Shown piece by piece: positions 42,821 to 64,000 of a stretch of DNA of 64,000 bases. How positions within the stretch are numbered: position 1 is the first letter of the stretch; each line of letters begins with the position of its first letter. The translations under genes were made by a program, and so were the position numbers. The stretch covers positions 66,642 through 130,641 of the forward strand of contig JAUXAG010000006.1 of NCBI GenBank assembly GCA_030614915.1. The letters are read 5' to 3'. This DNA is from Actinomycetes bacterium. Its GTDB lineage: Bacteria; Planctomycetota; Phycisphaerae; JAACET01. The notes beneath the pieces are model-generated. The model saw only the letters and a program-made list of their open reading frames with translations. It was not told where the DNA came from and did not search any database.

Positions 42821-44914
42821 TCATCGCGTAGGGTCCGCTGGATTTTGGGTTTCGGGGCCGGATTTCGCGTAGGATTTGAATCTCGCATTTACCGCCGTAA
42901 ACAGCATGCATGCTTTTTTTAGGGTAGTCTCAGGAACGCTCTTTGGGTCTTTGCCCCACTCTTCAATAAGTCGCAGTACAGCCCAAGCTTTCTGATCGGT
43001 TCCGAATGTCCCAAAGCCTTTACGCTTGAATACTTTTTCCATGGCAGCTACGTTAGTTTCTTCCTGCTTTTCCTCGTCGTTCAATTTAAAGTTGTAGCCA
43101 CAAGCCCCCACTGCAGCGGCGTAGCTGTCTCTGGCTACTAGGTCTTCGATAGTAGCCTTTTTCAAACCTACGGCTTGTCCCAGCATCAGAATACGAGAGT
43201 TATCACCAAATAAGTCCCGTTCGAATCGCTTAGCAGCCTGTATGCCTGTGCTATCGCTGTCGAGCAGTACGAGCATCTGACGACCGCCTACACCACTAGC
43301 CCCAAACATTATTGAGGCAAGGGGCATCATTCTGCTAATACCACCGGACGGAATGATCACGGTATCTTCCTGAAGTGTCGGCCCTTTTCCAAGAGCAGCG
43401 AGGCACCCCGTCAAAGCCTTCGCGATCCAGTAGTCGGTGATGCCCTCTACAATCAGTGATCGTTTACCCAGGAAAAGAGTTTGGGCCATCGAGTAACCGA
43501 TGGCGGCCTGCAGAGGAAAAAGGGTATCGCGGTCACCGGCGAGCCGTGTATTGCTGGAAACGACTGCCTTTTCGAGCCGATCTCCCTCAAGGTAGGTGGT
43601 CCTTACGCGCTCAAGATGATTTCCATCAACCAGGAATGGCAGGTGAGTAGTATATATCAATTGGTTGGTACCTGAGATGCGCTCAAAAAGGCCAATAAGG
43701 CTACTTTGCATTGTTGGATGTAGATGCAAACCGGGTTCATCGAGAAGTAATATGGCGCCTTTATGCGCCTGTTTCGATTCGACGAGGAAAACAAGATAGA
43801 AAGAGAAAAACCACTGAAATCCGTGGCTTCGCTCTTCGAATGGAATAGGGAACTCATTGTATTCATCTGAGACCCTCAGTACTAGGTCGTCTCCGTCCGC
43901 GTCAAAAGACAGTTTGTGTCGTTTTTCTGTCCACCATTTGATCCAGTCTCCAGTAAGGCCGAACGACGCGGAGTCCAATAGAGCCCGTCGCTTATCCTTT
44001 CTACGTTGCCTGGCTTCTTCTTCTTCGCCATCCTGTGGTTTGCCAAGCGTGAGAATCTCCTCCGGATTAAGATTACTCCACTCGAATAGGGCGGCCTGTG
44101 TGCGAGTCTTTACGTCAGGGGATTTGACACGCGTTAGATAGAGCGGCAAGTTCAACCTCGTTTCCAGCTGCCCATAGTCGTCGAAATATATGAATGTTGG
44201 GAGGTTTTGAAGAACCCAACTTCTTGCTTTTTGGGCTGGATCACCCTCTTTGGCTTGCCCAATAAGTGTCGAAAGTTTTCCAAGCTCCTTGCTGGCTAGT
44301 TGTTTTCGCGACTCGTCTCCAGATATCCAATTTGAAACAGTCGATTGAAACGATGTCAGTTGAGTGACGGTACCCTTGTCCCAAAGCGGAAGGTCTTCGT
44401 TGATAGCGTTTTCCGCATCGGACTTTGCCTTACTCACTGTACCATCGTCCGACCCATTCGACATGACAGCTTGGGCAACTTCCTGAATTCTCTTCTTAGC
44501 ATGGACCGACGATTTCTGGAATTCCTTTTCGGTCTTTTCATCGAAATTGATATGTGTTTCGGTTTCTTCCTCACCTTTGTAGTAGCTTGTGAAGATGATT
44601 TCTGTCGGCTTGACGTTAAACTCAGAGGGAAACTGGCCGGACAGCTCTTCTGCTTCAGCATCCGTAAGCTCGAACTTGAGAGTAACCACCTCCTGTTTTT
44701 CGAAGCGCTCCTTTGCATAACGTTCCCGGGGATAGTCCAAAAGCTTATCGAACTTGGCATTTGCGACATTCTTTGTCTTCCACAGCGCCCGAAGGATGGC
44801 TGTCTTGCCGCTTTCATTTTTGCCAACGAGAGCTGTTACATGCTCATCCACGGGAATCAGTCCGGTGTCGTCAATTACTTTATAGTTTTTGATCTGAAAG
44901 TGTGTAAGCTTCAT
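42821..44914 (-). CDS. OLD-family ATP-dependent endonuclease (ABC-type ATPase + Toprim), stand-alone class-1 type
   Basis: Walker A GKNESGKT. OLD-type Walker B/H-loop ILLLDEPGLHLHP. Toprim Glu (SLIVEGITDYW) and DxD (VLLDSDSTG). GC (~48%) is clearly lower than the flanks. Confidence 0.8.
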   Translation of the reverse strand: MKLTHFQIKNYKVIDDTGLIPVDEHVTALVGKNESGKTAILRALWKTKNVANAKFDKLLDYPRERYAKERFEKQEVVTLKFELTDAEAEELSGQFPSEFNVKPTEIIFTSYYKGEEETETHINFDEKTEKEFQKSSVHAKKRIQEVAQAVMSNGSDDGTVSKAKSDAENAINEDLPLWDKGTVTQLTSFQSTVSNWISGDESRKQLASKELGKLSTLIGQAKEGDPAQKARSWVLQNLPTFIYFDDYGQLETRLNLPLYLTRVKSPDVKTRTQAALFEWSNLNPEEILTLGKPQDGEEEEARQRRKDKRRALLDSASFGLTGDWIKWWTEKRHKLSFDADGDDLVLRVSDEYNEFPIPFEERSHGFQWFFSFYLVFLVESKQAHKGAILLLDEPGLHLHPTMQSSLIGLFERISGTNQLIYTTHLPFLVDGNHLERVRTTYLEGDRLEKAVVSSNTRLAGDRDTLFPLQAAIGYSMAQTLFLGKRSLIVEGITDYWIAKALTGCLAALGKGPTLQEDTVIIPSGGISRMMPLASIMFGASGVGGRQMLVLLDSDSTGIQAAKRFERDLFGDNSRILMLGQAVGLKKATIEDLVARDSYAAAVGACGYNFKLNDEEKQEETNVAAMEKVFKRKGFGTFGTDQKAWAVLRLIEEWGKDPKSVPETTLKKACMLFTAVNARFKSYAKSGPETQNPADPTR

Positions 44915-50920: not shown

Positions 50921-51361
50921 TTAATATATTAGTGCTGCTGTGGCTTTGCCGCGCTTTTGCTTCTTGGAGTCGTCGATAATTAGTTCGATCAGCTCGCCTT
51001 TGCCAGGTGCCAGAGCAGCCAGCATTTCGGAGGCTTTGATTTGCAAAACGATCTGCGGCTGCCATCGGCCGACATTGAGGAAGTTGTTGAAGCGGCTGCG
51101 GTGTGGTTGGCTTCGGCTGTCCAGATGTCGGTAGAGGGCCGCTATGTTCTTTCGCCCCCAGGAAATAGTCATCAACAGGACCAAGGTGCGGAAGTACCGG
51201 AAGTGGTCCCAGTGGAACTGATCTTTCAAAGAATCGAAAAAAGACTCCAGTTTTTTGGGGAAACGGACGATCTTGAACATGAGGGCAATCTCCTGTCGAT
51301 AAGTTGTTGTGATAAAGCTCTTATCGATGAGATTGCCTTTTTTTGTTGATAAATTGTTCAT
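50921..51361 (-). mobile_element. IS4/IS701-like transposase N-terminal fragment (truncated, no DDE domain)
   Basis: 146-aa ORF, low GC, lacks the catalytic region. Ends ~60 bp from tRNA-Gly. The family call is pattern recognition only. Confidence 0.35.
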
Positions 51362-51422
51362 GTCCGTCTAAAATCTTCTCAAAAAGTCAGTCAAGTTGAG
51401 TATATAACAATGACAAATAGTT

Positions 51423-51494
<72 letters not shown>

Positions 51495-51510
51495 TTTCGT
51501 AATAGCTTTT

Positions 51511-51538
51511 GGAGCCTAGGGTTACAACCCTAGGCTCC
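51511..51538 (+). terminator. Perfect 11-bp hairpin immediately 3' of tRNA-Gly; tandem TTTTGGGACAGTT x2 follows at 51563-51587
   Basis: ggagcctaggg ttacaa ccctaggctcc. Candidate tRNA terminator and/or att-site/arm-type integrase binding repeats. Confidence 0.45.
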
Positions 51539-51896
51539 TGGCCGTTTAGGCTTACCTCTGATTTTGGGACAGTTTTTGGGACAGTTCTACGCCGAAACTT
51601 ACCTGCGTGGTATTGACTTCACGCCAATCCAACACTAGCAGCAATCAGTTAAATCCCCCACAGACGTTATTGTCAGAGCAATGTCAATCCGCAAGCAGGT
51701 GAGTAGCATGCGCAATTAGAAACTGCCTCATTGGTAGGCATGTTCCCTCCCGATAGGCACTGTCGGCCTTTGATTATCGCTAAGCGGTGATTATCCAGGA
51801 GGCCGGGCCAGATCTCCACTGGGAAGATTGTAGTACATAGGGGTTTTTGCTGAGAGGCCTGGTCTTTCTATGGCTTGCAGCTCTTGTTCATCTGCT

Positions 51897-52994
51897 TTAG
51901 CCAGCTTTGTGCAACCTAGTTTTAGCCCGGGACAACCGAGCGGGTTGCGGTCGAGAAATACCTGCCACCTTGTCATACAGTTCTTCCGGAACCTGTAGAT
52001 AGTGCCGGCTTGAAACACGTATATCATGACCCAGCCAAGCACTGACTACGTATTGAGGATATTTCTGGGCCCAATCAGTTTCACGGTTACGACGGAGTAC
52101 TTGACACCAAGACGCCCATCTTTGTAAACCTGCCCGTTTGCAGATTACGCCGAAATCTCGCCAGAGATTGCTCTGTCCAAGGGATCTTCTCGGAATAACA
52201 AGGGGCTTGCTCTTATCCCTTTTCGAGAATGCTTCGAGAAGCAGATTGAACAAATCCGGCTCGATAGGAACTATTCTCCGTCTTGCGGTTTTTTCGGCGA
52301 CAATCTCTAGTCGCCGATGCTCCCAATCTACAGCTGACCAAGGCAAGTTTAGAGCTTCGCCCTGCCGCAGGCCAGCTAATCGACATAGAGACAGCAATGC
52401 ACGCCAAGGGATTGACGGGCACGCATCAAGCAGCTTTTCGAAGTCTTTTGGGCTGACATATCTCCAATTCTTATCCGGCTCTGGGGCGATTCCTGAGAGC
52501 CGATCAAAGGGATTGAAGAGAACCAGATCATCTCGCAGTGCGTGATTGAAGATGGTCTTAGCATTACGAATGTGCTGACAGACGGTACCTTCTGCCAGTC
52601 CCTCATGTTTTGATGCTTTTCCTTTAGCCAGGCTCGATCGCCAGTCGGCTGCAGCTGCGCGGGTAATTCTATCGATACGAATGCTCTCGCCAAAGTACTC
52701 CAGCAAATAGCTGGCAGTCCGTTCGTGTAACTCTAAGGTGCCCTTCTTTATGTCGGTCCGAGAATCAAGATATCGCTGCAGATATTGCCCGAACGGCAGA
52801 GCCTTGCCAAGACTGTATCTACCAGGATCAACGTGTAGTTTGGCCATGAATCTCTCAGCTAGTACCCTTGCTTGGCGTTTTCGGATCCTCTTGGTCGAGC
52901 CAAGGCTTTTAGTTCGCCTCTTACCAAATTGGTCGTAGTATTTGACCTTCCAGTATCCTGAATCTTCATATAGACGAATTGGGTTTGTATTCAT
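51897..52994 (-). CDS. Tyrosine-type site-specific integrase
   Basis: Box I-like GLRQGEALNL and C-terminal H..R..Y region (LGHDIRVSSRHY). Start at MNTNPIRLY with a GGGAG RBS. Track ORF extends to 53111. Confidence 0.75.
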   Translation of the reverse strand: MNTNPIRLYEDSGYWKVKYYDQFGKRRTKSLGSTKRIRKRQARVLAERFMAKLHVDPGRYSLGKALPFGQYLQRYLDSRTDIKKGTLELHERTASYLLEYFGESIRIDRITRAAAADWRSSLAKGKASKHEGLAEGTVCQHIRNAKTIFNHALRDDLVLFNPFDRLSGIAPEPDKNWRYVSPKDFEKLLDACPSIPWRALLSLCRLAGLRQGEALNLPWSAVDWEHRRLEIVAEKTARRRIVPIEPDLFNLLLEAFSKRDKSKPLVIPRRSLGQSNLWRDFGVICKRAGLQRWASWCQVLRRNRETDWAQKYPQYVVSAWLGHDIRVSSRHYLQVPEELYDKVAGISRPQPARLSRAKTRLHKAG

Positions 52995-53226
52995 TATTAT
53001 ACTCCCTATATTTCCTGGAGGCCTCCTTCTGACCTTGACAGCCCGCACATTCTGTTGGATACAACGGACATCATTAGTTGTTAGTCTAAATGGCTTGCCT
53101 GAAGAGCGCAAGAGGCAAAATCGGATATTTTAAAATTTCTTCGACTGTTCGGAAACCTCGGTTTTTGACGGTAAGCCGGCGTTTTGCCTGCTAATTACTG
53201 GGCTGAATTCCAAAGTGCTATCCAAA

Positions 53227-53505
53227 TTATCGCGGGTTGGTTTCTGTCAGCTCCTCCAAAAGCCGCTCCAACTCAATGCGGCGGAAGCGAATGCTCTTAC
53301 CAACTTGGGTGGCCCGCAGGAGTCCCTTCCTACGATAATAGCGGAGGGTATTCGCCGAGTCTTTGGTTTTGATCCCATCGAGTCGCAAATATCGAATAGC
53401 CTCCTCTTCCGTTAGAAGTTCGGGGCAAGGCTGCCATGGGTCTCCCGGAAGGATGGAGATATGACCAGTTATTGTTGTATTCTTGTGGATTTTCATACCA
53501 ACCAC
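53227..53505 (-). CDS. Excisionase / AlpA-family HTH DNA-binding protein
   Basis: EEAIRYLRL...NTLRYYRRKGLL...GKSIRFRRIELERLL. Typical MerR-like excisionase HTH. Confidence 0.6.
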   Translation of the reverse strand: MVGMKIHKNTTITGHISILPGDPWQPCPELLTEEEAIRYLRLDGIKTKDSANTLRYYRRKGLLRATQVGKSIRFRRIELERLLEELTETNPR

Positions 53506-53715
53506 ATCTCAGCATGCGGATATACTTCCCATTCCATGTCCTCTCACCTGCATGAACTGAAAAGGCACCTGTCACACACGAAGCAGCCGGAATCCCGACG
53601 CATGGGCTGGCTGCACTCGAAGTACAAGCAATCAATGCCCACATTACGGTGAGCTATATAAGAACATGAATTCTTGATCACAATCTTTGGCCTCTACTGA
53701 GACGTCCCAGTCTTA

Positions 53716-54282
53716 TCAAGCCGTTGGAAGGACTATATCCTTCTGATACTGGTATTTGCCTTTGCGGTCGGCGTACGAAGTAGCGCAGGGCATATCACTT
53801 TCAAAGAACAGTACTTGAGCCAGACCTTCGCCCGCGTAAATCTTCGCCGGCAAAGGAGTAGTATTGGAGATCTCCAGCACAGCCTTGCCTTCCCAGCCGG
53901 GCTCAAACGGCGTTACATTTACAATGATTCCACACCTGGCATAAGTAGACTTGCCGACACAAATGGTCATTACATTTCTGGGAATGCGGAACAACTCAAG
54001 GCTCAGAGCTAAAACAAAACTGTTAGGCGGTATCAGGCAGACCTTACCATCGAACTCTACTAGCCCTCTGGGGTCGAAATTCTTGGGATCAACGACCGCC
54101 CCGTAAACATTGGTAAAGATGCGGAACTGACTGGATACTCGCAGATCATACCCAAAAGACGAGTTTCCAAACGAGATGACCGGTCGGCCATCAATGCTGC
54201 GGACCTGGTTTTGAACAAAGGGCTCAATCATACCGTATTCCCTGGCCATCTTTGCAATCCATGTGTCGGGGCGGATACTCAT
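53716..54282 (-). CDS. dcd: dCTP deaminase
   Basis: [11 protein letters not shown]..., [22 protein letters not shown] motifs (dUTPase-fold trimer). Start at MSIRPD just after the nrdG stop. Confidence 0.8.
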
Positions 54283-54295
54283 AGTTTTAGTCTCC

Positions 54296-54931
54296 TTAAT
54301 GTTCTTTCGCTCGAGTTCGAAGCGCCGGATCAAGGGCATGCTGCGGACAGAATTTCTGCAGGCGATGTGCAGATCCGGAAGGAATGAGTTTGCCTATTGA
54401 ATCGATGTCCCTCGGCGACAATAGAGCCTTTACCACGGTTGTCCGGAATTCATGAATAACCTTACTCCTGGCAATCAATTCGATGCTTTCCAGAATTTGA
54501 CTAGTGGGCGTACGTACGCCTGTGAGACGATCATAAATTCGGAGAGGCGCTTTGACATCCATGGCAATGAAATCTACCAACCCATCTTGCAGAACTGCAC
54601 GCAGTACATGTGGCTGACTGCCATTGGTATCCAGCTTGACCAAAAAACCCTCGGACTTTATGCGAGCAAGAAACTCAGGCAGGTCTGCCTGAATAGTCGG
54701 TTCCCCTCCGGTGACTACTACCCCATCGAGTCGTTTGTTACGTGATTGGAGGATCTCAAAAAACTCTTCTTCGGGTATCAAGCAGAATTCAAAGACATCT
54801 GCGGATATTAATGATCCGTTATGACAATAAGGGCAGCGGAAATTGCAGCCCTGAGTGAAGGCCACAGCTGCTGTCCGACCGGGAAAATCAGAGAGACTGA
54901 ACTTATTTAAGCCGCCGATTCTCATGATCAA
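54296..54931 (-). CDS. nrdG: Anaerobic ribonucleotide reductase activating protein (radical SAM)
   Basis: [10 protein letters not shown] radical-SAM cluster motif. 4-nt overlap with the nrdD end. Confidence 0.85.
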
Positions 54932-57060
54932 GCCTCTATTTTGTAGTTCTTCCTAAGGGCAAACTCCGCCTGCTTGCCTTTGTTCCATTGGCTTACAGGC
55001 CTCAGGTATCCGACCACGCGGGAGTAAACCTCGGTCTGGGCGTTACACTTGGGGCACTGAGGCTGCTGACCGGATATGTAGCCGTGCGCAGGACATACAG
55101 AGAACACCGGTGTTATGGTAAAATATGGAAGACGGTATTTGTGGCAAACCTCTCTGATAAAGGCTTTTACGGCCTGAGGGTCTGGCGTGGTCTCGCCGAG
55201 ATAGACATGTAATACCGTACCGCCGGTGTAGAGAGTCTGTAGCTCATCCTGGAGGTCTAAGACCTCAAAGATGTCGCCCGTATAGTTGACCGGTAATTGA
55301 GTGGAATTGGTATAGAAGGGCTCTCCTGTCTGATTGGCACAAATAATGTCGGGGTAGTGTTCCTTGTCCAGCTTGGCCAGCCGATAGCTGGTACTTTCTG
55401 CCGGGGTGGCTTCCAGGTTGTAGAAGTTGCCGGTCTGTTCTTGGAAGCGGATAAGAATTTGGCGCATAAAATCCAAGACTCTGATAGCAAAAGAGCGGCC
55501 TTGTGAGGTGCCGATATCGCAGCCTAGTAGGTTCAGGCCGGCTTCATTCATACCCACGAGGCCTATGGTGGAGAAGTGGTTGTACCAGTAACAGCCGTAA
55601 TGCTGTTTGATCTGTCGCAAATAGAATTTGGTATAGGGAAAGAGGTCCTGCTCGGTGAGCCGTTCGAGGACCTTGCGCTTCGTTTCCAGGCTTGTTCTGG
55701 CAATCTCCATCAACTGGTTGAGCCTCTGGAGAAAGTCGGCCTCATTAACGGCCAGATACCCCAGGCGGGGCATATTAATGGTTACTACACCGATCGAGCC
55801 GGTCAAGGGATTGGCCCCGAAAAGTCCACCCCCGCGTTTTCTTAGAGAACTCAGGTCCAAGCGGAGCCGACAGCACATCGAGCGGACATCGTCAGGAGAC
55901 ATGCCGGAATTGACAAAGTTGGCAAAATAAGGCAGGCCGTACTTGGCGGTGATTTCCCAGAGCTGTTCCAATTCTGGAGCATTCCAATCAAAATCTTCTG
56001 TGATGCTATAGGTGGGAATGGGGAAAGTGAAAGGACGACCCTTGGCGTCGCCCTCGGCTAAGACTTCCAGAAAAGCCCGATTAAAAAGATTCATCTCCGG
56101 CTGGAAGTCACCGTAAGTCTCCCTTTGTGGCTGGCCGCCTATGATGACCGCCTGGTCCGCCAGCGATTTGGGAGGCTGCAGATCCAGGCTAATATTGGCA
56201 AAGGGGGCCTGGCCTCCGACCCGGGTAGGCACGTTGCTATTGAAGATGAATTCCTGAAGAGCCTGTTTTATTTCTCTAAAGATCAGGCCGTCATAACGGA
56301 TAAATGGAGCGAGCAAGGTGTCAACATTAGAAAACGCCTGGGCTCCGGCCGCTTCGCCCTGGAGGGTGAAGATGAAGTTGACCATCTGACCCAGCACAGA
56401 GCGAAAATGCCTGGCCGGTCTGCTTTCAACTTTGCCTGGAGCACCCCGGAATCCCCACAAAAGCAGTCCGTACAGATACCATCCCACGCAATAGGGCGCA
56501 AGAAGCCCGAGGTCGTGAAGGTGTATTGCTCCAGACTCATATGCCTCGCGGACCTCCGGGCTGTAGATTTTCTCGAGCCAGTAATTCTTGCTGATGTCGC
56601 CGGATACGTAGTGGTTTAGTCCCGGCAGAGAGTAACCCATATTGCTGTTTTCACGCACCTTCCAATCACGGCGGTCCAGATAACTGTCTACCCGGTCAAG
56701 ATCAATCTTCTGGGCCATCTTTCTGATTCGCGTGTGCTGATCGCGATACCGGATGTAGGCCTTGCCGGTCTTTCTGAAAAGCGAGGCCAATAAAACGTCT
56801 TCCACCACATCCTGTATTTGTTCCACGGTAGGCGGTTTTTGTGGCAGAATTGTCTCGGCCTGGTTCAACACCTCAGTTGTGAGTGTTCGGGCAGTGTCTT
56901 GGCCAAACTCACCGGTGGCCTGGCCTGCCCGCAGTATGGCCGATTCGATTTTCCTGGCATCAAAAGGAACTAAGCGACCGTCACGTTTCTGAATTTGGTC
57001 AAATGGACAGTCGCCAAGATCGCCAAGGTCTCTTTGGGATTGTTCCGGCAAGCCTATCAT
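54928..57060 (-). CDS. nrdD: Anaerobic ribonucleoside-triphosphate reductase (class III)
   Basis: 710 aa. C-terminal zinc site CPAHGY...CPKCN and glycyl-radical motif RVVGYLRP. Confidence 0.85.
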   Translation of the reverse strand: MIGLPEQSQRDLGDLGDCPFDQIQKRDGRLVPFDARKIESAILRAGQATGEFGQDTARTLTTEVLNQAETILPQKPPTVEQIQDVVEDVLLASLFRKTGKAYIRYRDQHTRIRKMAQKIDLDRVDSYLDRRDWKVRENSNMGYSLPGLNHYVSGDISKNYWLEKIYSPEVREAYESGAIHLHDLGLLAPYCVGWYLYGLLLWGFRGAPGKVESRPARHFRSVLGQMVNFIFTLQGEAAGAQAFSNVDTLLAPFIRYDGLIFREIKQALQEFIFNSNVPTRVGGQAPFANISLDLQPPKSLADQAVIIGGQPQRETYGDFQPEMNLFNRAFLEVLAEGDAKGRPFTFPIPTYSITEDFDWNAPELEQLWEITAKYGLPYFANFVNSGMSPDDVRSMCCRLRLDLSSLRKRGGGLFGANPLTGSIGVVTINMPRLGYLAVNEADFLQRLNQLMEIARTSLETKRKVLERLTEQDLFPYTKFYLRQIKQHYGCYWYNHFSTIGLVGMNEAGLNLLGCDIGTSQGRSFAIRVLDFMRQILIRFQEQTGNFYNLEATPAESTSYRLAKLDKEHYPDIICANQTGEPFYTNSTQLPVNYTGDIFEVLDLQDELQTLYTGGTVLHVYLGETTPDPQAVKAFIREVCHKYRLPYFTITPVFSVCPAHGYISGQQPQCPKCNAQTEVYSRVVGYLRPVSQWNKGKQAEFALRKNYKIEA

Positions 57061-57307
57061 TCGAAAATATCCAATAATATCTACGCGCCGCGTGCAACCT
57101 TTTTGATACTGAGCATCTTCTGATCACACACGTCCATTAAATCAGAAATGTAATGAGCACGAATTCCCTCTACCTAACCAATCACTGATTTCTGCATTGC
57201 TCGATGATTTCAGGTTGTTGTGTGTGGTAATGACCGAACCATGTGCAAGCTCAGCCAGTGCGTGAGCTGAGCTTGCCCGAAAGAGGCAAACCAGGGAGGT
57301 AAAGAAA

Positions 57308-57451
57308 ATGCAAAGTTGTCCCTTGTGTGGTGTAATTAGGTACGGAAGTAAATACTTGGGCAAGTACTGTCCGCGATGTGGCAGGACGATTACGGACTTC
57401 CAAACAGATCTGGTCGATGACTTCCTTTCGGAAGACGACATACTGAGGTGA
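57308..57451 (+). CDS. Small zinc-ribbon protein (47 aa), overlaps the ArdC start; not in the ORF track
   Basis: MQSCPLCGVIRYGSKYLGKYCPRCGRTITDFQ... I translated it by hand. Its TGA overlaps the GTG start of the next gene. Confidence 0.35.
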   Translation: MQSCPLCGVIRYGSKYLGKYCPRCGRTITDFQTDLVDDFLSEDDILR

Positions 57452-58269
57452 TCAAAACGAACACAAATCAAACCAAGCAATTGGCCAAAGAGGCCACTGA
57501 TCAATTGATAGAGGCTGTTGAGGCCGGAAAGAGCGAAAAGCTCAAGGCCTATCTGGCTATGATGGGCAAGTTTCATCGTTATAGCTTTGGCAATGTCATG
57601 CTGATAGGAGCCCAGAAACCGAATGCGAGCAGAGTGGCGGGCTACCGAACCTGGAAAAAACTCGGCAGACAGGTCAAAAAGGGTGAAAAGGCTATCCGTA
57701 TTCTGGCCCCGATGGTTCGGCGGAACAAGCGTCAGCAAGAGGAGGGGGATGACCAGGAAGAAAATGTGACCTTTTTCAAGACCGTTTGCGTCTGGGACAC
57801 GACCCAAACGGATGGCAAACCACTGCCGGAATTCTCTGAGGTTGCAGGTGATCCGGGCAAGTACATTGACCGCTTGAAAGGCTACGTAGCCAGCCGGGGT
57901 ATCAAATTGGAGTACTCCAATTCTATCGGGCGTGCCGAAGGGCTTTCGGCCAAGGGCAGGATCATCCTCAGGAAAAACCTTTCTCCGGCTGAGGAATTTT
58001 CCGTATTGCTGCATGAGCTTTCTCATGAGACATTACACCAAGGCGAAGAACCGACAAAGAACAAGACTGTGCAGGAGACCGAGGCCGAGGCAGTTGCCTT
58101 TGTTGTCTGTCAAGCGGTGGGGCTGGATACCAATACCGCGTCCAGTGATTATGTGCAGCTCTACGACGGCAAGAAGGAAACGCTTATTTCTTCGCTTGAG
58201 CGGATCCAGCAGACAGCCGCCGACATCATTGACAACTTGATGCCTGAGCAGAAAAGATCTGCTGCCTGA
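57448..58269 (+). CDS. ardC: ArdC-like antirestriction protein (N-terminal ssDNA-binding domain + C-terminal HExxH metalloprotease-like domain)
   Basis: N-terminus YLAMMGKFHRYSFGNVMLI...GYRTWKKLGRQVKKGEKAI. C-terminal LLHELSHETLH. Confidence 0.7.
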   Translation: MIKTNTNQTKQLAKEATDQLIEAVEAGKSEKLKAYLAMMGKFHRYSFGNVMLIGAQKPNASRVAGYRTWKKLGRQVKKGEKAIRILAPMVRRNKRQQEEGDDQEENVTFFKTVCVWDTTQTDGKPLPEFSEVAGDPGKYIDRLKGYVASRGIKLEYSNSIGRAEGLSAKGRIILRKNLSPAEEFSVLLHELSHETLHQGEEPTKNKTVQETEAEAVAFVVCQAVGLDTNTASSDYVQLYDGKKETLISSLERIQQTAADIIDNLMPEQKRSAA

Positions 58270-58346
58270 AAAACGGCTCCCGGCCTGGCTTTTTGGGCAG
58301 GGCTTATCGCGCAGTCTTGGCCAGGCCGGGGTAGCCCGGTAGGTCA

Positions 58347-58616
58347 CTAAGACGAGGTGCCGGAGGCTTCCTCACTCTCCTTCAGGCTGATATACTCGAA
58401 GGCCTTGGCGGTCACCAGCTGAAGCTTCGGCAACTCTTCGGGGAAGAAATAGTCGGTGTTCTTCCACACACCGTCCTGCTGGAAACGCTTCTGGATGCGG
58501 GTGGAGTAGCGAACGACGATAGTGCCGTTCTTATCCACCTCGTCCTTCCACACACTCGCGGATACGTTGCCGGCGCGGATGACTTTGATCGGTGCCGTGT
58601 TTGTCTGTTGAGTCAT
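58347..58616 (-). CDS. Hypothetical 89-aa protein
   Basis: ORF only. No Gly-Gly C-terminus, so not an obvious Ubl. Confidence 0.35.
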   Translation of the reverse strand: MTQQTNTAPIKVIRAGNVSASVWKDEVDKNGTIVVRYSTRIQKRFQQDGVWKNTDYFFPEELPKLQLVTAKAFEYISLKESEEASGTSS

Positions 58617-58789
58617 GGTTTTACTCCTTGTGAAAGAGGGTTACTAGAATTTGAATACTGTCCGAGTAGGCGAACAGTGACGTCTTGAGCTGGCCGTGAG
58701 CGCAGCGACTCTAGCCGCAGGCTCACAGCCGCTAGATCTCCGGAGACCCCGCCGCCCTCGCTCAATCACAGACAGTCTGTCAAGTTCGT

Positions 58790-59023
58790 CTAGTCACCCA
58801 GCGGGATCCGCCGACGAACCGGCCTTCGCTCTTGCCGTACAATCGGTGGAGCAGATTCCCGAACCACGGGTGTCTTTTCCAGTTGGGCGATGCGACCCTC
58901 CAGCTTCGCCAGACGATGATCGTCCGGGCGAGCCAGGGCGCCGCCATTGCCGCCGGGGCTGAGATAGCCCAAAAGGTTGCGGCGTCTAACGCTAACGATG
59001 TCGGTCATAGTCTGTCGTGCCAT
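58790..59023 (-). CDS. Hypothetical 77-aa protein 13 nt downstream of the E1-like gene
   Basis: ORF in operon position. Arg-rich. Uncertain. Confidence 0.25.
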   Translation of the reverse strand: MARQTMTDIVSVRRRNLLGYLSPGGNGGALARPDDHRLAKLEGRIAQLEKTPVVRESAPPIVRQERRPVRRRIPLGD

Positions 59024-59035
59024 TGTTTGGCTCCT

Positions 59036-59932
59036 TTAGAAAGAAGTATTACAAACCTCACAGGTCGGATTCCGATCCGCCTGCAGAAAATGTACTGCCA
59101 GCCCTGTCTCCGAAGGCCGATTTTCCATGAAGATGATGTTCTTTTCCGGATCAAAAAGTTCTTGCAGCGGTCCAGTGCTCGCTGAGAGAAGCCACATCGC
59201 TACTCGGGCACACATATTGGCTACCGGCTGTACGTCGATTCCCATGATAGACTCCCGATGCAGAGTCTCGATATCATCCTCGGATTCAACCCCCAGAGAG
59301 CATCGCAGGCAGGGACTATTTCCCGGCCTGGTCCAGATGACGCTGGCCTGCCGGGCCTGGCGGTGGAAAAAGGCGTAAGCAACCGGTTTGAGCCAGTAAG
59401 CCAAGGAATCAAACCTTAGTAGCTGCCGGCCCTCATCAAAGGCTCCCACCACAACATCTGAACTTTCCACCAAAGCAGCGATTTCACCATCGCTCAGGTC
59501 TGCCGTATTCTTGCGAAGAGGTGTTATGTGTGCATGCGGGTACATCTGCAGCAGGTATTTTCGATGGGCCAGTACTTTGGGTGTGCCGATACTGTCCGGC
59601 GGATAAAAGGTTCGCCCGGCCTCCAGATTTTCTTTTTGGACCGTGTCATGATCAAGTTCTGTAAGAGAGCATCCCATAGCCACCAGCTGCAAACCGGTCC
59701 ACCAACCGACTGCACCGGCCCCGATTTGGAGCACTTTCATGCCTGTCAGACCGGCCTGCTCCACCAGAGCATGTCTTATTGGCTCGTCATTCCGATGATT
59801 TGCGGCAACACTATCAAGTCTCGCCAGGGGATTGGAAAAAACCTTTGAATTTGCAGAAGCCGGCCTTTCCCTGTCCGGGTCTTTGATCAGATAGCGGCCG
59901 CTGGCCAGTCTTATTTTTTGGGGCTGTGTCAT
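59036..59932 (-). CDS. E1-like (ThiF/MoeB/HesA family) adenylyltransferase
   Basis: VLQIGAGAVGWWTGLQLVAMG Rossmann motif. Collinear with ThiF/MoeB through ...D.D.V...NL..., IG.PKV, PCLRC...CEVC zinc motifs. ATGA overlap with the upstream gene. Confidence 0.75.
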   Translation of the reverse strand: MTQPQKIRLASGRYLIKDPDRERPASANSKVFSNPLARLDSVAANHRNDEPIRHALVEQAGLTGMKVLQIGAGAVGWWTGLQLVAMGCSLTELDHDTVQKENLEAGRTFYPPDSIGTPKVLAHRKYLLQMYPHAHITPLRKNTADLSDGEIAALVESSDVVVGAFDEGRQLLRFDSLAYWLKPVAYAFFHRQARQASVIWTRPGNSPCLRCSLGVESEDDIETLHRESIMGIDVQPVANMCARVAMWLLSASTGPLQELFDPEKNIIFMENRPSETGLAVHFLQADRNPTCEVCNTSF

Positions 59933-62709
59933 AATCTACTACCGTCAGAACCGGTATCGTGCCCCGGCAACTGTTTCAGAAACGGACCGAGGGCCTGGGC
60001 CTCTTCCACGACTCTGCTGAAAGCCTCTTGATCAACCAGGGCCTCTAGTTCGCCAAGGTTGCCGCTCTCTAATTGGGCTGACAGATTGCCGAGCTTATCC
60101 ATAAGGGTAGAACTGTTTTTGGCCAGGTTCTTACAAAAGGCTCCGTGGATACCGACAAGCAGGTCAAAGTCATCCGTAATCAGGCTCAGGGCCTCCCACG
60201 GGGATTTACCCAGAGACTCTGTTTGGCCATTCTTCCACTGAAGACTGTATCCAGTTCGCTGATCGTATTTAAGCGTATCTAAAATGACGGCCTTGGCTGC
60301 CGCTGTTCTGGCATCGGCAATGGTTGGCTTACCGGCTGGAAGCAGGGCACAATCCGGCCAGGCACTGAACTGAACCTTCTCTGCCGGCCGCTGGTTGGCG
60401 GTCTTCGAGTCATGCTGTTCTATCAAGCTCCTGATGGAGATGCCTGAGCGATACTGTACAAAGAGGATGGTATCCTGCTGATCGCTCAGCTCGACCAATT
60501 CCCAGTCGCCATCTACTAAGTCCGCCTGATCTGCCTCTCTTTGCAGGAATTGGCTGTTTCTTCCGGCCGGCACACCAATGACCTTCTTCCAGGAGATTTC
60601 TTTATTGACCTCCCCGGAAACGCGCAGCCGTCCCCGGCTTTCGCCGACTGCCTGGGCCACCAGGTTTGTGATTTGCTCGGGAGTGTGCTTGTCGCAGAAA
60701 ACGTCAAGGACGTGCAGAGTTTCGATTTCGGTTTGGAAGATGTTTTTGGTTACATCCAGCAGGGCTTCGCGCAAAGACTCCTGCGGGCTGTCTATAAATG
60801 CCGCCAGAGAACCGGACTGTCCCATCAAGTGTTCAAAGGCCTGACCAAGCAATTTTGCCGGCCCCCCTTTTTTCTGGAATAGATCTTTCAGTGTTGTTTC
60901 CAGGAAAGCCCGGCCCGCCAGTTCCATACCTACCGGCGTCTGTAACGGAGATGGCTCGCTGTCCAAGAGCATCTGTGCATGCTGCTCCAATTCGATAGCC
61001 GAACCGTCCATCCTGCCGGTAAACCGCACCAAGCGGCCGAGCTCATTGGTCACAAAGGTATGAATTTCAGTCAGCATACTGGTCAATACCCGATGGACCT
61101 CCTGCTCAAGGGCCAGTCGAATGGCCCAGGAAGCGTTATGACGGTACTGCCGGCACAGTTCGCTCATACTCAAGGATCGAAGGGCACGGCCCAGCCAACT
61201 GCGGCGATTGTGCCCTTCCACTTGGTTTGAATAGGTATCTATCTGCTCTAACACAGGGGCTGAGGCCTCGGACGATAGACGCAGCTTTTCACCGCTGAGC
61301 CGCAAGGATCTCCCGATATTGGCGCAGAGCGAATCGAGCGATGCCTTGCTGCTATTGAGTCCGTTTGGCATCTTCATTTTCGTGGCCAGATCTGCTGTGA
61401 TTTGAGTCTTGGCTTCGACCACAGTCTTAGCTGCCCTTTGCTTCATCCGGCCAACTAACAGCGGAATCAACTCGGCGGTTACGCTACGGTAGGCTCCGTG
61501 CACTGCCTGGCAGCCGAGCCAGCCCGTGGCCTGGCCCACCCTGTCGGCAAAAGCGCCCTGAGCCTCTTGGAAGACGTCGGTTTTGCCGTCTTCGCCGACA
61601 ACAAGATGTCTGCTGCCCTGGCTCTCTGCCTCGGATTCGACCAGCTGTAACCGCCAAGCAAGGTTTTCACCGTCTTGTTCGGCTTGTCCGGGGTCTGCGG
61701 CCAGAAGCGAGCGACATAGCCATGCCGCCAGGCGGGAACCGAGGAAACCCTTGATCCTCTGTCTGTCCAGATTAATAACAGAGATACCGGCGGTTGAGAC
61801 GAAGTGGTCTCTATCCACTGTGGCCTGCAGATCCACACCGTGCCGTCTGAGGCACCTGCCGGTCTCGGTATAAGCTAGATTAAAAAGGAAATGGGTAACC
61901 AGGCCTTTTAAACCTTTAATAGTACTAAGCTCGCCGTGGTCATTCACGTTCTGGAAGACCAGAACAGACTCGCTGACCAACCCGATCCCATCAGTAATCC
62001 CGCCTTCGAGATCTACATAATGTGGACAGCGTTGGGCCCAAAGCTGAGTAAGGAGTTGCTGGCGGTTTCGCACAGCTTGGGCCTTGTTGGGCGGAAAGAT
62101 GGTTCCCAGGTCCAGGAATATCCAAGTCAGATTGACCCTTATGTTGAGTTCAGCCGCCGTCTCGTAGACCAGCTTCCGCACGTCGGCAGTAGCAGAGCCC
62201 CCGGTTCCGCCAACCGTTGAAGTTATGACAAAGATCGGCAAGGCCGAGTTTCTGGTGGAATCTTCTGTAGCAATGGCCCGCTGCTGCCCATAGTCCTGGA
62301 AACGCCGCATACCACGGGCAAGCAACTTAGTAAAAAACTGCCGGTTCATCCTGAATCGAGCTCGGCCCCAGGACGGAATGCCTCCACTGCCCATGTCCTC
62401 CTGCTGTATCCCCGGATTGTCAATCTCTCCTGGATCCAAAAATGGCAACTGCCCGCTGGCGGCCATCTGCTTTCTAGATTGAGGATCAGCTAACTCAGCG
62501 GGAATGAAGGTTGAAGTGGGTAAATCCGTAGCTGATGCCTGAGGATCAAGATGGGTGTCCATCCTGATGATCCAGGAATTTAGACCATGGATAATCTTTC
62601 CGCCATAACCAGAGGCCAGGTTCACCACACCGTTGATAACGTCAATCGCTGTAGTGCCCATGTTTATGAACACTGCAAAGCCGCTGAGATTTTGCTTTTG
62701 CTCATTCAT
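59929..62709 (-). CDS. Large (~926 aa) protein with N-terminal FtsZ/tubulin-like GTPase signature and long helical C-terminal region
   Basis: IFVITSTVGGTGGSATADVRKLVYETAAE matches the FtsZ T4-loop region ([25 protein letters not shown]). A possible T1-like stretch AVFINMGTTAIDVINGV lies upstream. No P-loop GKS/T. ATG MNEQ overlaps the last codon and stop of the vWA-FHA gene. Track ORF starts at 62775. Confidence 0.5.
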   Translation of the reverse strand: MNEQKQNLSGFAVFINMGTTAIDVINGVVNLASGYGGKIIHGLNSWIIRMDTHLDPQASATDLPTSTFIPAELADPQSRKQMAASGQLPFLDPGEIDNPGIQQEDMGSGGIPSWGRARFRMNRQFFTKLLARGMRRFQDYGQQRAIATEDSTRNSALPIFVITSTVGGTGGSATADVRKLVYETAAELNIRVNLTWIFLDLGTIFPPNKAQAVRNRQQLLTQLWAQRCPHYVDLEGGITDGIGLVSESVLVFQNVNDHGELSTIKGLKGLVTHFLFNLAYTETGRCLRRHGVDLQATVDRDHFVSTAGISVINLDRQRIKGFLGSRLAAWLCRSLLAADPGQAEQDGENLAWRLQLVESEAESQGSRHLVVGEDGKTDVFQEAQGAFADRVGQATGWLGCQAVHGAYRSVTAELIPLLVGRMKQRAAKTVVEAKTQITADLATKMKMPNGLNSSKASLDSLCANIGRSLRLSGEKLRLSSEASAPVLEQIDTYSNQVEGHNRRSWLGRALRSLSMSELCRQYRHNASWAIRLALEQEVHRVLTSMLTEIHTFVTNELGRLVRFTGRMDGSAIELEQHAQMLLDSEPSPLQTPVGMELAGRAFLETTLKDLFQKKGGPAKLLGQAFEHLMGQSGSLAAFIDSPQESLREALLDVTKNIFQTEIETLHVLDVFCDKHTPEQITNLVAQAVGESRGRLRVSGEVNKEISWKKVIGVPAGRNSQFLQREADQADLVDGDWELVELSDQQDTILFVQYRSGISIRSLIEQHDSKTANQRPAEKVQFSAWPDCALLPAGKPTIADARTAAAKAVILDTLKYDQRTGYSLQWKNGQTESLGKSPWEALSLITDDFDLLVGIHGAFCKNLAKNSSTLMDKLGNLSAQLESGNLGELEALVDQEAFSRVVEEAQALGPFLKQLPGHDTGSDGSRL

Positions 62710-64000
62710 CTTGCTTGTCCTTATGTTCGGTTTTGCCGTCGGATATACTGGCTTGCCTATCTTGCCCGGGGACAACTGCCAAACGCATGCCGACCTTCTT
62801 GGTTAGCTGAAGTCCAATAGGAAACCTGATCTGACGGGTTTTGCCCCGGTTTAATCGGGTGTTGTTGACTTCAACAGGTTTGGATGAGAGATTTCTGACC
62901 AGCCATCTTGAGCCACGCCGCAGCAGGCGGATGTGCCTGACTTCGATACCTTCTTTTGCCAGCCGCAGGGCATTGCCCGGGCCGCTGCCGATGTGTAGCC
63001 TCCTCAGGCTGGCTACCGGGCCAAGGGTATGTTGTTGTCCATCGACCGTGGCCACCAATATCGATGGTCGAGCCTTGGGTTGGGCAGCGAGTCTTCTGCG
63101 AGCTTTGAGTCTTTGTCGAAGTACACGAACCAAGTCGGGGATAAGCAAGGCTGCAGCCGCCAATACCAGGCACACGACTCCACCGGCGGCTATCATGACC
63201 AGCGAAGGGAACCCGCGTTCTGGTTCAGGCTGTGGTTTTTGGCTTGTCTTCTGCTGTTCCGGAATCTTTATTGGATATCTGGCAGTTGCCCGAAAAGTAG
63301 TTTCCTTCTTAGTGGCTGCTTGACGAATAAGAGGGGCTGGCGTGGGTCTAGCTTGAGCTTTGTCCGGTGTTGTTGCGATTTCTTCGACTTTTGGAGGAAG
63401 CTCGGGTACTGGTTTGCTAACCGGTTTTTGCGGAGGTGTTTCCGGAGCAGCTTTCGCCGAAGGCCCGCGGGCCCCGGCCAGCCAAGTCGCAGGATTAGCC
63501 CGATCGATAAGAGACCAACCTAGTTCGCCGTGACTGGCAGCTATGGGGAGTTGTTTATTGGCCTTTGCGGTGCCCGTAACGTAGAGATGCCAACCTCTGG
63601 CCTTGAACGCGGTCGCCAGATGGCGGATTCGTTCGACCTGGCGGTCCGATAGACGGCCATTTGTCAAGACGATGACTACAACCTTGCTATCGTGCTGGTC
63701 TGCGGTACGCTGATCCAGCCGCTCAAAACCCATTTCCAAAGCGCTGGCCACGTCGGCATCGCGAAAATCGACCGGCTCAATATTGGCCAGCAGGGTGTTG
63801 AGGGTTTCGACCCTTTCGGGGTCGATGGATTCGATAGACTGACTGACCCGGATACGACCTTCCCGACGATGGGCACTTATGACCTCCAGGTAATCGCCGG
63901 TCTGCAACCCGGAAACTATATCTTTGGCCAGGACAGAGAGTTCGTTCCAGTCAGACTTGTTTCGACGAGAAGTGTCCCATATCACCGAAACCGCTAGACT
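62702..64000 (-). CDS. vWA domain – TM helix – FHA domain protein (N-terminus beyond window)
   Basis: vWA-like VSVIWDTS...KVVVIVLTNGRLSD. Pro-rich linker. TM helix LVMIAAGGVVCLVLAAAALLI. C-terminal FHA-like HIGSGPGN...EVRHIRL...LVRNLSSKPVEVNNTRL. Reading frame is open to base 64000. Confidence 0.6.
   Translation of the reverse strand, partial: SLAVSVIWDTSRRNKSDWNELSVLAKDIVSGLQTGDYLEVISAHRREGRIRVSQSIESIDPERVETLNTLLANIEPVDFRDADVASALEMGFERLDQRTADQHDSKVVVIVLTNGRLSDRQVERIRHLATAFKARGWHLYVTGTAKANKQLPIAASHGELGWSLIDRANPATWLAGARGPSAKAAPETPPQKPVSKPVPELPPKVEEIATTPDKAQARPTPAPLIRQAATKKETTFRATARYPIKIPEQQKTSQKPQPEPERGFPSLVMIAAGGVVCLVLAAAALLIPDLVRVLRQRLKARRRLAAQPKARPSILVATVDGQQHTLGPVASLRRLHIGSGPGNALRLAKEGIEVRHIRLLRRGSRWLVRNLSSKPVEVNNTRLNRGKTRQIRFPIGLQLTKKVGMRLAVVPGQDRQASISDGKTEHKDKQDE

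Follow-up and report, generated by a model that had tools for sequence, protein, structure and literature searches.

What does a tubulin-like protein do when its gene shares start and stop codons with that of a membrane protein on one side and that of an E1-like enzyme on the other? The question is raised by a 64,000-nucleotide (nt) stretch of contig JAUXAG010000006.1 (positions 66,642 to 130,641), which at its full length we call the window, and whose last part carries three consecutive minus-strand open reading frames (ORFs): for a protein with vWA, transmembrane (TM) and FHA-like regions, for a 926-amino-acid (aa) tubulin-like protein of the FtsZl1/Tubulin_2 type, and for an adenylyltransferase of the ThiF/MoeB type. 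An earlier inspection of the DNA, made without database searches and referred to here as the sequence-only reading, had singled out this operon, and its three domain calls are all supported by Pfam matches above cutoffs. We are highly confident that the operon belongs to a conserved multi-gene set carried on integrative elements of uncultivated bacteria; that this set is an element-borne, membrane-anchored conflict system, for defence or exclusion, is a reading we put forward tentatively.

The three ORFs are as tightly coupled as had been claimed. The TGA of the vWA gene (62704-62702) and the ATG of the tubulin-like gene (62709-62707) both lie within ATGAATGA, and the tubulin-like and E1-like genes share the four nucleotides ATGA. 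AAGGA is found 5' of the ATG at 62709, and a TTG at 62775 is a less likely start for the tubulin-like gene. Promoter-like and terminator-like sites within the operon do not exceed the count expected from shuffled sequence, so a single transcript fits. The vWA gene does run past the window edge, as the sequence-only reading had noted, yet comparison with a 3-kb metagenome contig that is 96% identical to the window (L013) shows that merely about 37 N-terminal codons are missing. Exact-sequence look-ups gave no record of the window's own proteins, and L013 was the one contig that such closeness brought up.

The same arrangement recurs well beyond the window. Look-ups of eight members of the tubulin-like family, from six clades of its tree, gave seven independent loci with flanking genes (L001, L003, L010, L012, L014, L015 and L016), which with the window make eight; the eighth look-up (L009) is a contig that holds the tubulin-like gene alone. 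In all eight loci the gene immediately before the tubulin-like one is that for the vWA-TM-FHA protein, and the neighbourhood conservation that the sequence-only reading had wished to see checked is thus present for this pair. Among L001, L003, L010, L012, L014 and L015 the two genes overlap by 4, 8, 20 and 23 nt, and the ATGA-type overlap between the tubulin-like and E1-like genes is repeated in L001, L003 and L012. By all-against-all BLAST every component is homologous between loci, the proteins being 20-32% identical. Gene order and 4-23-nt overlaps that recur at such identities contradict chance packing, and on this sequence comparison the vWA/tubulin-like/E1-like arrangement is far beyond chance.

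The related loci also enlarge the set. Five of the seven (L003, L010, L012, L014 and L015) encode a P-loop ATPase of 450-690 aa together with a Cys-rich protein of 140-170 aa that has a hydrophobic tail; L016 has positional counterparts of 530 aa and 243 aa, with a weak BLAST match for the ATPase only, and a gene at the start of L001 resembles the C-terminal part of the ATPase by eye only. Beside them are genes for one or two small TM proteins, which match by BLAST only within locus pairs. The ATPase/Cys-rich block lies upstream of the vWA gene in L003, L010, L012 and L016 and downstream of the operon in L014 and L015, and such constant content in a changed order is good evidence for a functional unit. 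In L013, the last 60 nt of an ORF with a hydrophobic-then-basic tail stand 5' of the vWA gene and resemble the small TM gene found at the same position in L001, L003 and L016; ATPase, Cys-rich and small TM genes probably lie just past base 64000 in the source genome too.

The ATPase can be placed, from weak profile matches, in the HerA/FtsK/VirB4 superfamily: the matches include a DUF87 protein (7.6e-7), HerA, DptH, a VirB4-like protein, FtsK and TrwB, then the TraG P-loop, CedB/CedD and TraC, and the C-terminal part has a weak MarR-like winged-helix match. A match to the PADLOC model mad8 at 9e-10 might have suggested membership of the MADS systems, which we did not adopt: the preprint comes without the domain content of mad8, and the hidden Markov models were built from HHpred alignments. 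As a separate observation, the ATPase has an additional uncharacterised domain, and an E-x-E-T-(D/E)-like motif in its C-terminal domain raises a mere suspicion of nuclease-like character.

For the 926-aa protein, the sequence-only reading had relied on a T4 signature, VITSTVGGTGGSATA in the window, and had asked whether the N-terminal ~300 residues fold as a tubulin/FtsZ GTPase. In the predicted structure they do: residues ~10-370 are modelled as a complete tubulin/FtsZ fold, with Rossmann-type GTPase domain, core helix H7 and activation domain, and so extend beyond the nucleotide-binding half alone. Fold comparison scored CetZ at 24.4 (311 residues aligned), Asgard, eukaryotic and bacterial tubulins at 21-22, TubZ at 19.9, FtsZ at 18.5 and PhuZ at ~16, with the best non-tubulin match below 10, and the Foldseek result agrees. 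Matches of the stalk that follows the fold to AhlB/AhlC, MakA, PspA and pyocin S5 were set aside as unspecific (TM-scores ~0.2), and no full-length structural analogue was found in BFVD.

The nucleotide-binding loops can be followed through the family. T3 reads MGSGGIPSWGR and T4 TSTVGGTGGSA, and T1 is reduced to G18-T19. Across 56 sequences there is no variation at G18 (T or S follows), D51 or G167; at least 90% retain G202, N215 and the T3 residues G107 and G115 (for these last two, at least 53/56), and more than 80% of the aligned sequences have N254/N256, D293 and D301. From the order of secondary-structure elements we infer that N215, N254/N256, D293 and D301 are the T6 and T7 residues; with T6 and the T7 acidic pair in place, polymer-activated GTP hydrolysis would be allowed.

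The Pfam match of this protein to Tubulin_2 (PF13809) is borderline (E 7.6e-7; 29.1 bits against a cutoff of 27), and several members of its family fail the model (26.0 bits for P0016, no match for P0045). No relative was retrieved in a word-indexed homologue search. An exhaustive HMMER search of 1.84 billion cluster representatives gave 137 relatives (50%-identity clusters), 69 of them at E <=1e-30, most being 930-950 aa long and matching end to end at 20-32% identity; all members located are metagenome or metagenome-assembled-genome sequences. Because the weakest matches in this search are strong Tubulin_2 proteins of comparable length (up to 130 bits), the protein is, by its sequence relationships, a divergent subfamily of Pfam Tubulin_2, a family that corresponds to FtsZl1 of Makarova and Koonin (PMC9871819).

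The assignment of the upstream protein rests on near-threshold profile matches together with a conserved architecture. Pfam VWA scores 24.5 bits (cutoff 23.8) over residues 7-149 and Pfam FHA 21.8 bits (cutoff 20.7), accompanied by a weak Yop-YscD_cpl match and, in NCBIfam, weak FhaB/TagH matches of the FHA-like region; the family profile's matches to solved vWA and FHA structures are consistent, yet sub-significant (vWF-A and anthrax-receptor vWA at E ~0.02-0.04). The full-length form, known from L013, has 469 aa and a signal peptide, which is encoded by the 37 N-terminal codons that the window copy lacks. Eight homologues share a common plan of signal peptide, vWA domain, Pro/Ala/Lys-rich spacer of very variable length, one TM helix (FPSLVMIAAGGVVCLVLAAAALLIPDLV in the window) with an Arg/Lys cluster, and FHA-like domain. 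The positive-inside rule, together with the signal peptide, would put the vWA domain outside the cell and the FHA-like domain in the cytoplasm. The latter domain, with its weak YscD match, resembles the phospho-independent FHA-like modules of secretion systems.

The E1-like protein matches Pfam ThiF (E 1e-19; 71 bits against a cutoff of 28) and carries a GAGAVG (GxGxxG) Rossmann-type ATP-binding motif and two CxxC pairs, CLRC (59300-59311) and CEVC (59051-59062). In four aligned sequences G71/G73/G76, D94, D96, N102, R107, K119 and D166 are invariant, as are C208/C211 and C291/C294, a structural Zn site of the MoeB/ThiF/MccB type; beyond these four ligands the four sequences have no further invariant Cys that might serve as a thioester candidate. 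An N-terminal extension of ~55 aa is conserved (VRLxDGxF). Against solved structures the family profile finds UBA3 best (6.5e-12), also MoeB and UBA5, then MccB, ThiF and Cap2; the NCBIfam model cap2_3 matches at 1.3e-4, and a word-indexed homologue search with the enzyme retrieved only itself. Neither an E2/UBC nor a JAB domain is present in the protein or in the gene and Pfam lists of the inspected loci. We also considered the PRTRC-type ThiF cassettes of conjugative elements and dropped them: no such NCBIfam model matched.

What, then, might this enzyme act upon? The sequence-only reading had seen no ubiquitin-like (Ubl) partner. That holds for a beta-grasp protein ending in Gly-Gly, of which there is no ORF in any inspected locus, but the adjacent 77-aa ORF proves to be a conserved partner that ends in Asp. 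In the window its ATG lies 12 nt past the stop of the E1-like gene, with AGGAG 7 nt before it, and its product ends in RRIPLGD; in each of the six loci with an E1-like gene (window, L001, L003, L012, L014 and L015), 5-15 nt separate that gene from the start of a small ORF. The small proteins, of 77-104 aa and largely disordered, have in common a basic motif near the N-terminus, in which R14 is invariant, an amphipathic helix in the centre, and P52; BLAST between those of different loci gives no match, as they are too diverged, and the AlphaFold2 (AF2) model shows two helices plus disorder, with no beta-grasp, at a predicted local distance difference test (pLDDT) score of 62. All five complete lineage representatives end in Asp (PLGD, EMAD, SIFD, TRVD and RISD), as do three closer relatives from other assemblies, which makes 8/8 complete copies; the sixth lineage copy, in L001, runs off the contig end before its terminus. 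With Asp making up, by our estimate, ~5-6% of residues, the probability that five diverged lineages share it by chance is about 1e-5 or less, as an order of magnitude.

The two genes also come and go together. The E1-like gene is facultative: in L010 and L016, which form one clade, the tubulin-like gene is the last of the module, with neither the E1-like gene nor the small ORF present. From this co-presence and co-absence, the tight spacing and the invariant terminus we infer that the small protein is the most plausible substrate of the E1-like enzyme. In the E1-less locus L010, a RuvB-like AAA+ ATPase (10949-11950) directly follows the tubulin-like gene and is itself followed by an HTH_17 protein.

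As to the setting, the sequence-only reading had placed the operon beside ArdC on a tRNA-integrated element, and tRNA-Gly(CCC), a tyrosine integrase, an excisionase-like gene and ArdC are all found (Table 1). The interval 51423..53505, from the tRNA to the excisionase-like gene, is the visible end of an integrated element; no att repeat of the tRNA end occurs inside the window and no direct repeats within 51300-64000, and the remainder of the window is ordinary chromosome, including SecA and MutS. Comparable genes surround the module elsewhere: a large serine recombinase adjoins it in L003, HTH_17 excisionase-like genes occur in the window, L010, L012 and L015, and ArdC or an SprT-like/HExxH metalloprotease is nearby in the window (ArdC), L003 (SprT-like) and L015 (a HEYGHH protein). 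Four loci (L003, L010, L015 and L016), which are those with several kilobases of upstream flank, have a very large STAND-type gene beside the module, with NACHT in L003 and L015 and an Avs2-like HEAT protein in L015; the giants of L010 and L016 are divergent, homologous to each other and give NACHT/nSTAND matches. Within-locus BLAST of STAND against module proteins, for a shared adaptor domain, gave no match. Relatives were absent, by tblastn, from 72,556 plasmids (PLSDB) and 50,697 phage genomes (INPHARED) and also from the viral contigs of IMG/VR, and peptide-pattern scans of 185,579 representative genomes gave no match, which, with few patterns used, is weak evidence of absence.

Several neighbours in the window may be recorded in their own right. 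Between the excisionase-like gene and ArdC lie dcd (dCTP deaminase), an nrdG-type activase gene and nrdD (anaerobic ribonucleotide reductase; 53716-57060, minus strand), nucleotide-metabolism cargo that is more typical of phages and is absent from the related loci. The 89-aa ORF that lies between ArdC and the small Asp-terminated gene (58347-58616, minus strand) matches nothing in Pfam, PHROG or PADLOC and lacks a counterpart in those loci; by eye only, it has the look of a small single-stranded-DNA-binding protein. The 294-aa ORF that is antisense to ArdC and covers most of it (57142-58026, minus strand) is probably no gene. On the chromosomal side of the tRNA, in a patch of low G+C content (GC; 0.47 at 44-46 kb), a 697-aa OLD-family/AriA-like ATPase (42821-44914, minus strand; PADLOC AriA 5.9e-29, also the Old and GajA models) may be a separate defence gene. 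Within 32000-34000 the GC of 0.46 is unusual for the window and falls within a gene for a 1117-aa MFS-spermidine-synthase-like-TPR fusion (31450-34803).

Table 1. Features of the operon, of its products, of the element end and of the related loci. Coordinates are those of the window or of the locus named.
Feature	Sequence	Coordinates	Strand	Basis or remark
vWA-TM-FHA-like protein gene	window	62702..64000	-	ORF; Pfam VWA and FHA; 5' end outside window, ORF continues beyond 64000
vWA domain	window	63554..63982	-	Pfam VWA; alignment of homologues
Single TM helix FPSLVMIAAGGVVCLVLAAAALLIPDLV, then Arg/Lys-rich stretch	window	63128..63211	-	sequence; position kept in all homologues
FHA-like domain, predicted cytoplasmic	window	62831..62995	-	Pfam FHA; alignment
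Overlap of vWA gene stop and tubulin-like gene start, 8 nt, ATGAATGA	window	62702..62709	-	sequence
FtsZl1/Tubulin_2-type tubulin-like protein, 926 aa from ATG	window	59929..62709	-	ORF; Pfam
Tubulin/FtsZ fold, residues ~10-370	window	61600..62682	-	predicted structure; fold comparison
Long helical hairpin/coiled-coil stalk, residues 396-583	window	60961..61524	-	AF2 secondary structure, pLDDT >90
C-terminal alpha/beta domain, residues 594-926, without recognisable relative	window	59932..60930	-	AF2 model
Overlap of tubulin-like and E1-like genes, 4 nt, ATGA	window	59929..59932	-	sequence
E1-like (ThiF/MoeB-type) adenylyltransferase, 298 aa	window	59036..59932	-	ORF; Pfam ThiF
Small Asp-terminated protein, 77 aa	window	58790..59023	-	sequence; positional counterparts in related loci
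tRNA-Gly(CCC)	window	51423-51494	+	element end
Tyrosine integrase	window	51897-53111	-	element end
HTH_17 excisionase-like gene	window	53227-53505	-	element end
ArdC-type anti-restriction/metalloprotease gene	window	57448..58269	+	Pfam ArdcN 6.2e-18, Peptidase_M78; PHROG anti-restriction protein
Small-ORF counterpart	L003	13735-13998		position after E1-like gene
Small-ORF counterpart	L012	8437-8712		position after E1-like gene
Small-ORF counterpart	L014	7418-7732		position after E1-like gene
Small-ORF counterpart	L015	12791-13051		position after E1-like gene
ATPase ORF	L003	5752-7749		BLAST/profile
ATPase ORF	L012	743-2722		BLAST/profile
ATPase ORF	L015	14357-16411		BLAST/profile
ATPase ORFs	L010	4442-6642		split into two or three ORFs
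ATPase ORFs	L014	8537-10399		split into two or three ORFs
ATPase ORFs	L016	4972-7345		split into two or three ORFs
SprT-like/HExxH gene	L003	4471-5085		module neighbour; window ArdC has related metalloprotease domain
SprT-like/HExxH gene	L015	6587-7558		module neighbour; window ArdC has related metalloprotease domain
Radical-SAM gene, spore-photoproduct-lyase/SplB-like	L003	14120-15253		one of two distant clades
Radical-SAM gene, PA0069/Rv2578c-like	L015	5363-6304		one of two distant clades
Very large STAND-type gene	L003	1-313		module flank
Very large STAND-type gene	L010	1-3090	-	module flank
Very large STAND-type or Avs2-like/HEAT genes	L015	1-440, 787-4218	-	module flank
Very large STAND-type gene	L016	1-1855	-	module flank

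How could these parts work together? We tentatively propose that the vWA domain would sense an event at the cell envelope and that, via the TM helix and the FHA-like domain, the receptor would anchor or nucleate a GTP-dependent tubulin-like assembly at the membrane. That receptor and tubulin-like protein would form a stoichiometric complex is suggested by the 8-nt overlap of their genes. The assembly might then serve as a threshold switch or as a scaffold for the ATPase and Cys-rich effectors, the whole constituting a conflict system of the element, whether for defence or for exclusion. Where the E1-like enzyme is present, it would adenylate the C-terminal Asp of the small protein, which might then be ligated to a partner or turned into a modified end-product, tuning or arming the assembly; this E1-Asp chemistry is a hypothesis. 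We lean towards conflict because of the recurrent STAND neighbours, the vWA, FHA, E1 and HerA-like vocabulary, which is typical of conflict systems, and a published reinterpretation of tubulin-vWA systems as nucleoside triphosphate (NTP)-dependent threshold assemblies in conflict, often near STAND NTPases (PMC7159879). The NACHT/STAND or Avs-like giants beside the module in four loci, and the frequency of E1-like domains in defence systems (PADLOC), both support it, and in the choice between conflict cargo and a segregation or transfer module it is the STAND/NACHT neighbours that tilt the balance.

A number of observations weigh against this proposal. The vWA and FHA-like domains named by the sequence-only reading are present, but its description has to be amended, as both are degenerate: the metal-ion-dependent adhesion site (MIDAS) of the window copy reads DTSRR for DxSxS and LTNG for TDG, its Asp being invariant in the homologues and the full DxSxS occurring in L015 only (DSSGS), and most canonical phosphothreonine-binding residues of the FHA-like domain are gone, the alignment keeping Gly, Asn and mostly His, with Arg in L010 only and Ser in L012 only. 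This makes both of the sensing contacts proposed above uncertain. For the tubulin-like and vWA proteins PADLOC has no matching model, and its E1-E2 models (best 1.7e-8) align to the E1 part only, for instance over positions 169-272 of 426, so that matches to defence E1-E2 models are limited to the generic E1 domain. An acceptor for the small protein was sought at K806 of the tubulin-like protein, a position that Lys occupies in most of the clades presumed to have the E1-like gene but never in the clade without it; the candidate failed comparison across E1-neighboured members, P0003, P0004 and P0010 carrying Tyr or Arg, and was rejected. The ATPase, Cys-rich, TM and STAND genes are known from the related loci and lie outside the window, and the eight loci read, in which alone E1 status could be scored, were picked by contig availability from 137 clusters. 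The STAND genes may be mere neighbours in defence islands rather than module components, and the ArdC/SprT-like genes, the recombinases and the DNA-pump-type ATPase fit an element backbone at least equally well.

This last point leads directly to the possibility, less probable in our view though a serious one, that the module is machinery by which the element itself is transferred or maintained. Element DNA would then be pumped by the winged-helix-tailed ATPase through a channel of small TM and Cys-rich proteins, the outward vWA domain on its long stalk would touch a recipient cell or the envelope, the tubulin-like protein would position or segregate DNA or remodel the membrane at the transfer site, and the E1-like enzyme and small protein would be accessory. 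The module is indeed the main multi-gene block common to elements with differing recombinases (window, L003, L010, L012 and L015); ArdC/SprT-like genes, typical of transferred DNA, adjoin it in the window, L003 and L015; the nearest named relatives of the ATPase include the DNA transporters VirB4/TraC, FtsK, TrwB and CedB/CedD; and TubZ and PhuZ, which are tubulin relatives too, transport the DNA of plasmids or phages. However, none of the loci showed a relaxase, a replication initiator, a pilus or any other part of a type IV secretion system, the similarity to conjugation ATPases is weak throughout and at P-loop level, the plasmid, phage and viral collections named above hold no relatives, and STAND/NACHT or Avs-like giants at four loci would be unexpected beside a transfer backbone.

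The remaining explanations appear to us improbable to very different degrees. A membrane-remodelling or vesicle-forming cytoskeletal system that serves host cell biology and travels on mobile DNA incidentally has only a slight chance of being correct: the architecture and vWA partner agree with the description of FtsZl1 and the role proposed for it (PMC2875224), most partners are membrane proteins, and the stalk weakly matches the membrane-active helical proteins PspA, AhlB/C and MakA, but these fold matches are the unspecific ones mentioned above, the distribution is patchy with recombinase and excisionase genes adjacent, the peptide-pattern scans of representative genomes gave no match, and a housekeeping role leaves a DNA-pump-type ATPase with winged-helix tail and an E1-like partner unexplained. 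We give a similarly small chance to an MccB/MccA-type pair, in which the E1-like enzyme would nucleotidylate the precursor C-terminus to yield a toxic or signalling product and the neighbours would provide export or immunity. The family profile does match MccB (2e-7) and PaaA (1.4e-5), and a substrate-like ORF with an invariant last residue stands directly beside the enzyme, as with MccA and its invariant terminal Asn; yet the terminus here is Asp, on which the succinimide/phosphoramidate route of MccB (PMC12596934) cannot run as such, the partner has 77-104 aa rather than being a short peptide, UBA3, MoeB and UBA5 outscore MccB, no MccC/D/E/F-type exporter, tailoring or immunity gene occurs in any locus, and the pair always sits after the tubulin-like gene, never alone. 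As for a fortuitous packing of three unrelated cargo genes on an island, nothing speaks for it but the general tendency of islands to gather unrelated cargo, and with gene order and start/stop overlaps recurring in eight independent loci at 20-32% identity its likelihood is vanishingly small.

The module lends itself to experiment. A compact partner set and a tubulin fold predicted with high confidence make polymerisation, GTPase activity and receptor binding testable, and mobility together with one clade that naturally lacks the E1-like enzyme and small protein offers a simple genetic handle. If the enzyme does act on the terminal Asp, this would be a new substrate class for E1-type chemistry and maybe a new bacterial tagging route; should the module prove to be a defence system, a tubulin-like polymer would for the first time be seen linked to an E1-type enzyme, and as a device for DNA transfer it would be unusual and minimal. 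In both cases something would be learned of how cytoskeletal and ubiquitin-like machineries first combined.

Among known systems, TubZ and PhuZ resemble the tubulin-like protein in fold alone: neither a TubR-like adaptor nor centromere repeats turned up, and the present protein, which also has a stalk and a C-terminal domain, is of three times their length and without relatives in the plasmid and phage collections. The E1 operons of cyclic-oligonucleotide-based antiphage signalling systems (CBASS; Cap2) and of Bil/6A-MBL likewise place an E1-like adenylation domain on mobile DNA, whereas the enzyme here is a 298-aa protein without E2, and none of the loci encodes a JAB peptidase, a CD-NTase or a beta-grasp Ubl. 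A further comparison is with Pup, a disordered protein with a helix-forming segment and an acidic C-terminus, which is activated at its terminal Glu side chain by the glutamine-synthetase-fold ligase PafA. The small proteins here are likewise disordered, with a helical segment and an invariant acidic last residue, although the likeness is an analogy only: the neighbouring enzyme has an E1 fold, the residue is Asp, and PafA, Dop and proteasome genes are not present. It is tempting, if unlikely on present evidence, that the E1-like enzyme joins the terminal Asp covalently to a target, either a module component or an invader protein. Such tagging would, with the same low probability, combine a Pup-like logic with ubiquitin-type E1 chemistry and couple both to a membrane-anchored tubulin-like polymer, and, should this unlikely scheme hold, it would work without a beta-grasp fold, a Gly-Gly end or an E2.

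In MccB and MccA, too, an E1-like enzyme adjoins a ribosomal product with an invariant C-terminal residue. That residue is Asn instead of Asp, the product has 7 to ~50 aa against 77-104 aa, and the export and tailoring genes that belong to that system are missing from the loci here, in which the pair is embedded in a tubulin-like/vWA module. The GAP1-N2 GTPase-centric systems, described from Firmicutes and Actinobacteria by Kaur, Burroughs, Iyer and Aravind in 2020 (PMC7159879), likewise set a tubulin domain with a C-terminal coiled coil or helical domain beside a membrane protein with an extracellular vWA domain; the gene lists of the loci here contain no GAP1-type GTPase or HSP70, and the terms 'E1-like' and 'ThiF' have no occurrence in that paper.

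The nearest published relative is the predicted system of FtsZl1 operons with a vWA partner (Makarova and Koonin 2010, PMC2875224), originally proposed to be membrane-remodelling or vesicle-forming; the vWA partner that the sequence-only reading had, with reserve, associated with this family is thus confirmed. Within the tubulin/FtsZ superfamily, FtsZl1 proteins rank with the most divergent. They were described as proteins of ~1000 aa in which an FtsZ-like domain is followed by a coiled coil and a C-terminal domain, and as frequently, not obligatorily, accompanied by Ser/Thr kinases, a diverged P-loop GTPase and OmpA-like proteins (PMC2875224). The likeness is extensive: an N-terminal GTPase domain with T4, a long coiled coil and a C-terminal domain in about 900-1050 aa, an adjoining vWA gene with signal peptide or TM segment, a passing PF13809 score and direct phmmer links to strong Tubulin_2 members. 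On the other hand, the window protein is divergent, reaching 29 bits only on PF13809, and its C-terminal domain is alpha/beta and not 'mostly alpha-helical'; T6-H7 and the C-terminal half of the fold, which could not be aligned in 2010 (PMC2875224), belong here to a complete tubulin fold in the predicted model. The kinase, P-loop GTPase and OmpA-like partners are missing from every locus inspected, and in their place stand a HerA/FtsK-type ATPase, a Cys-rich protein, the E1-like enzyme with its Asp-terminated neighbour, and, on the vWA protein itself, an FHA-like tail. Literature searches, which left many subscription journals outside, found no description of an E1-like or FHA partner and none of HerA/FtsK-type ATPase or Cys-rich partners, and the pair of E1-like enzyme and small protein appears to be undescribed. 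The novelty claimed for the gene combination thus has to be given up for the vWA and tubulin-like pair, which is a published prediction, and appears to stand for the E1-like and FHA partners. What appears novel here is the 137-cluster tubulin-like family, its HerA/FtsK-type and Cys-rich partners, and the facultative E1-like/Asp-terminated pair that sets this module apart within the FtsZl1-vWA theme.

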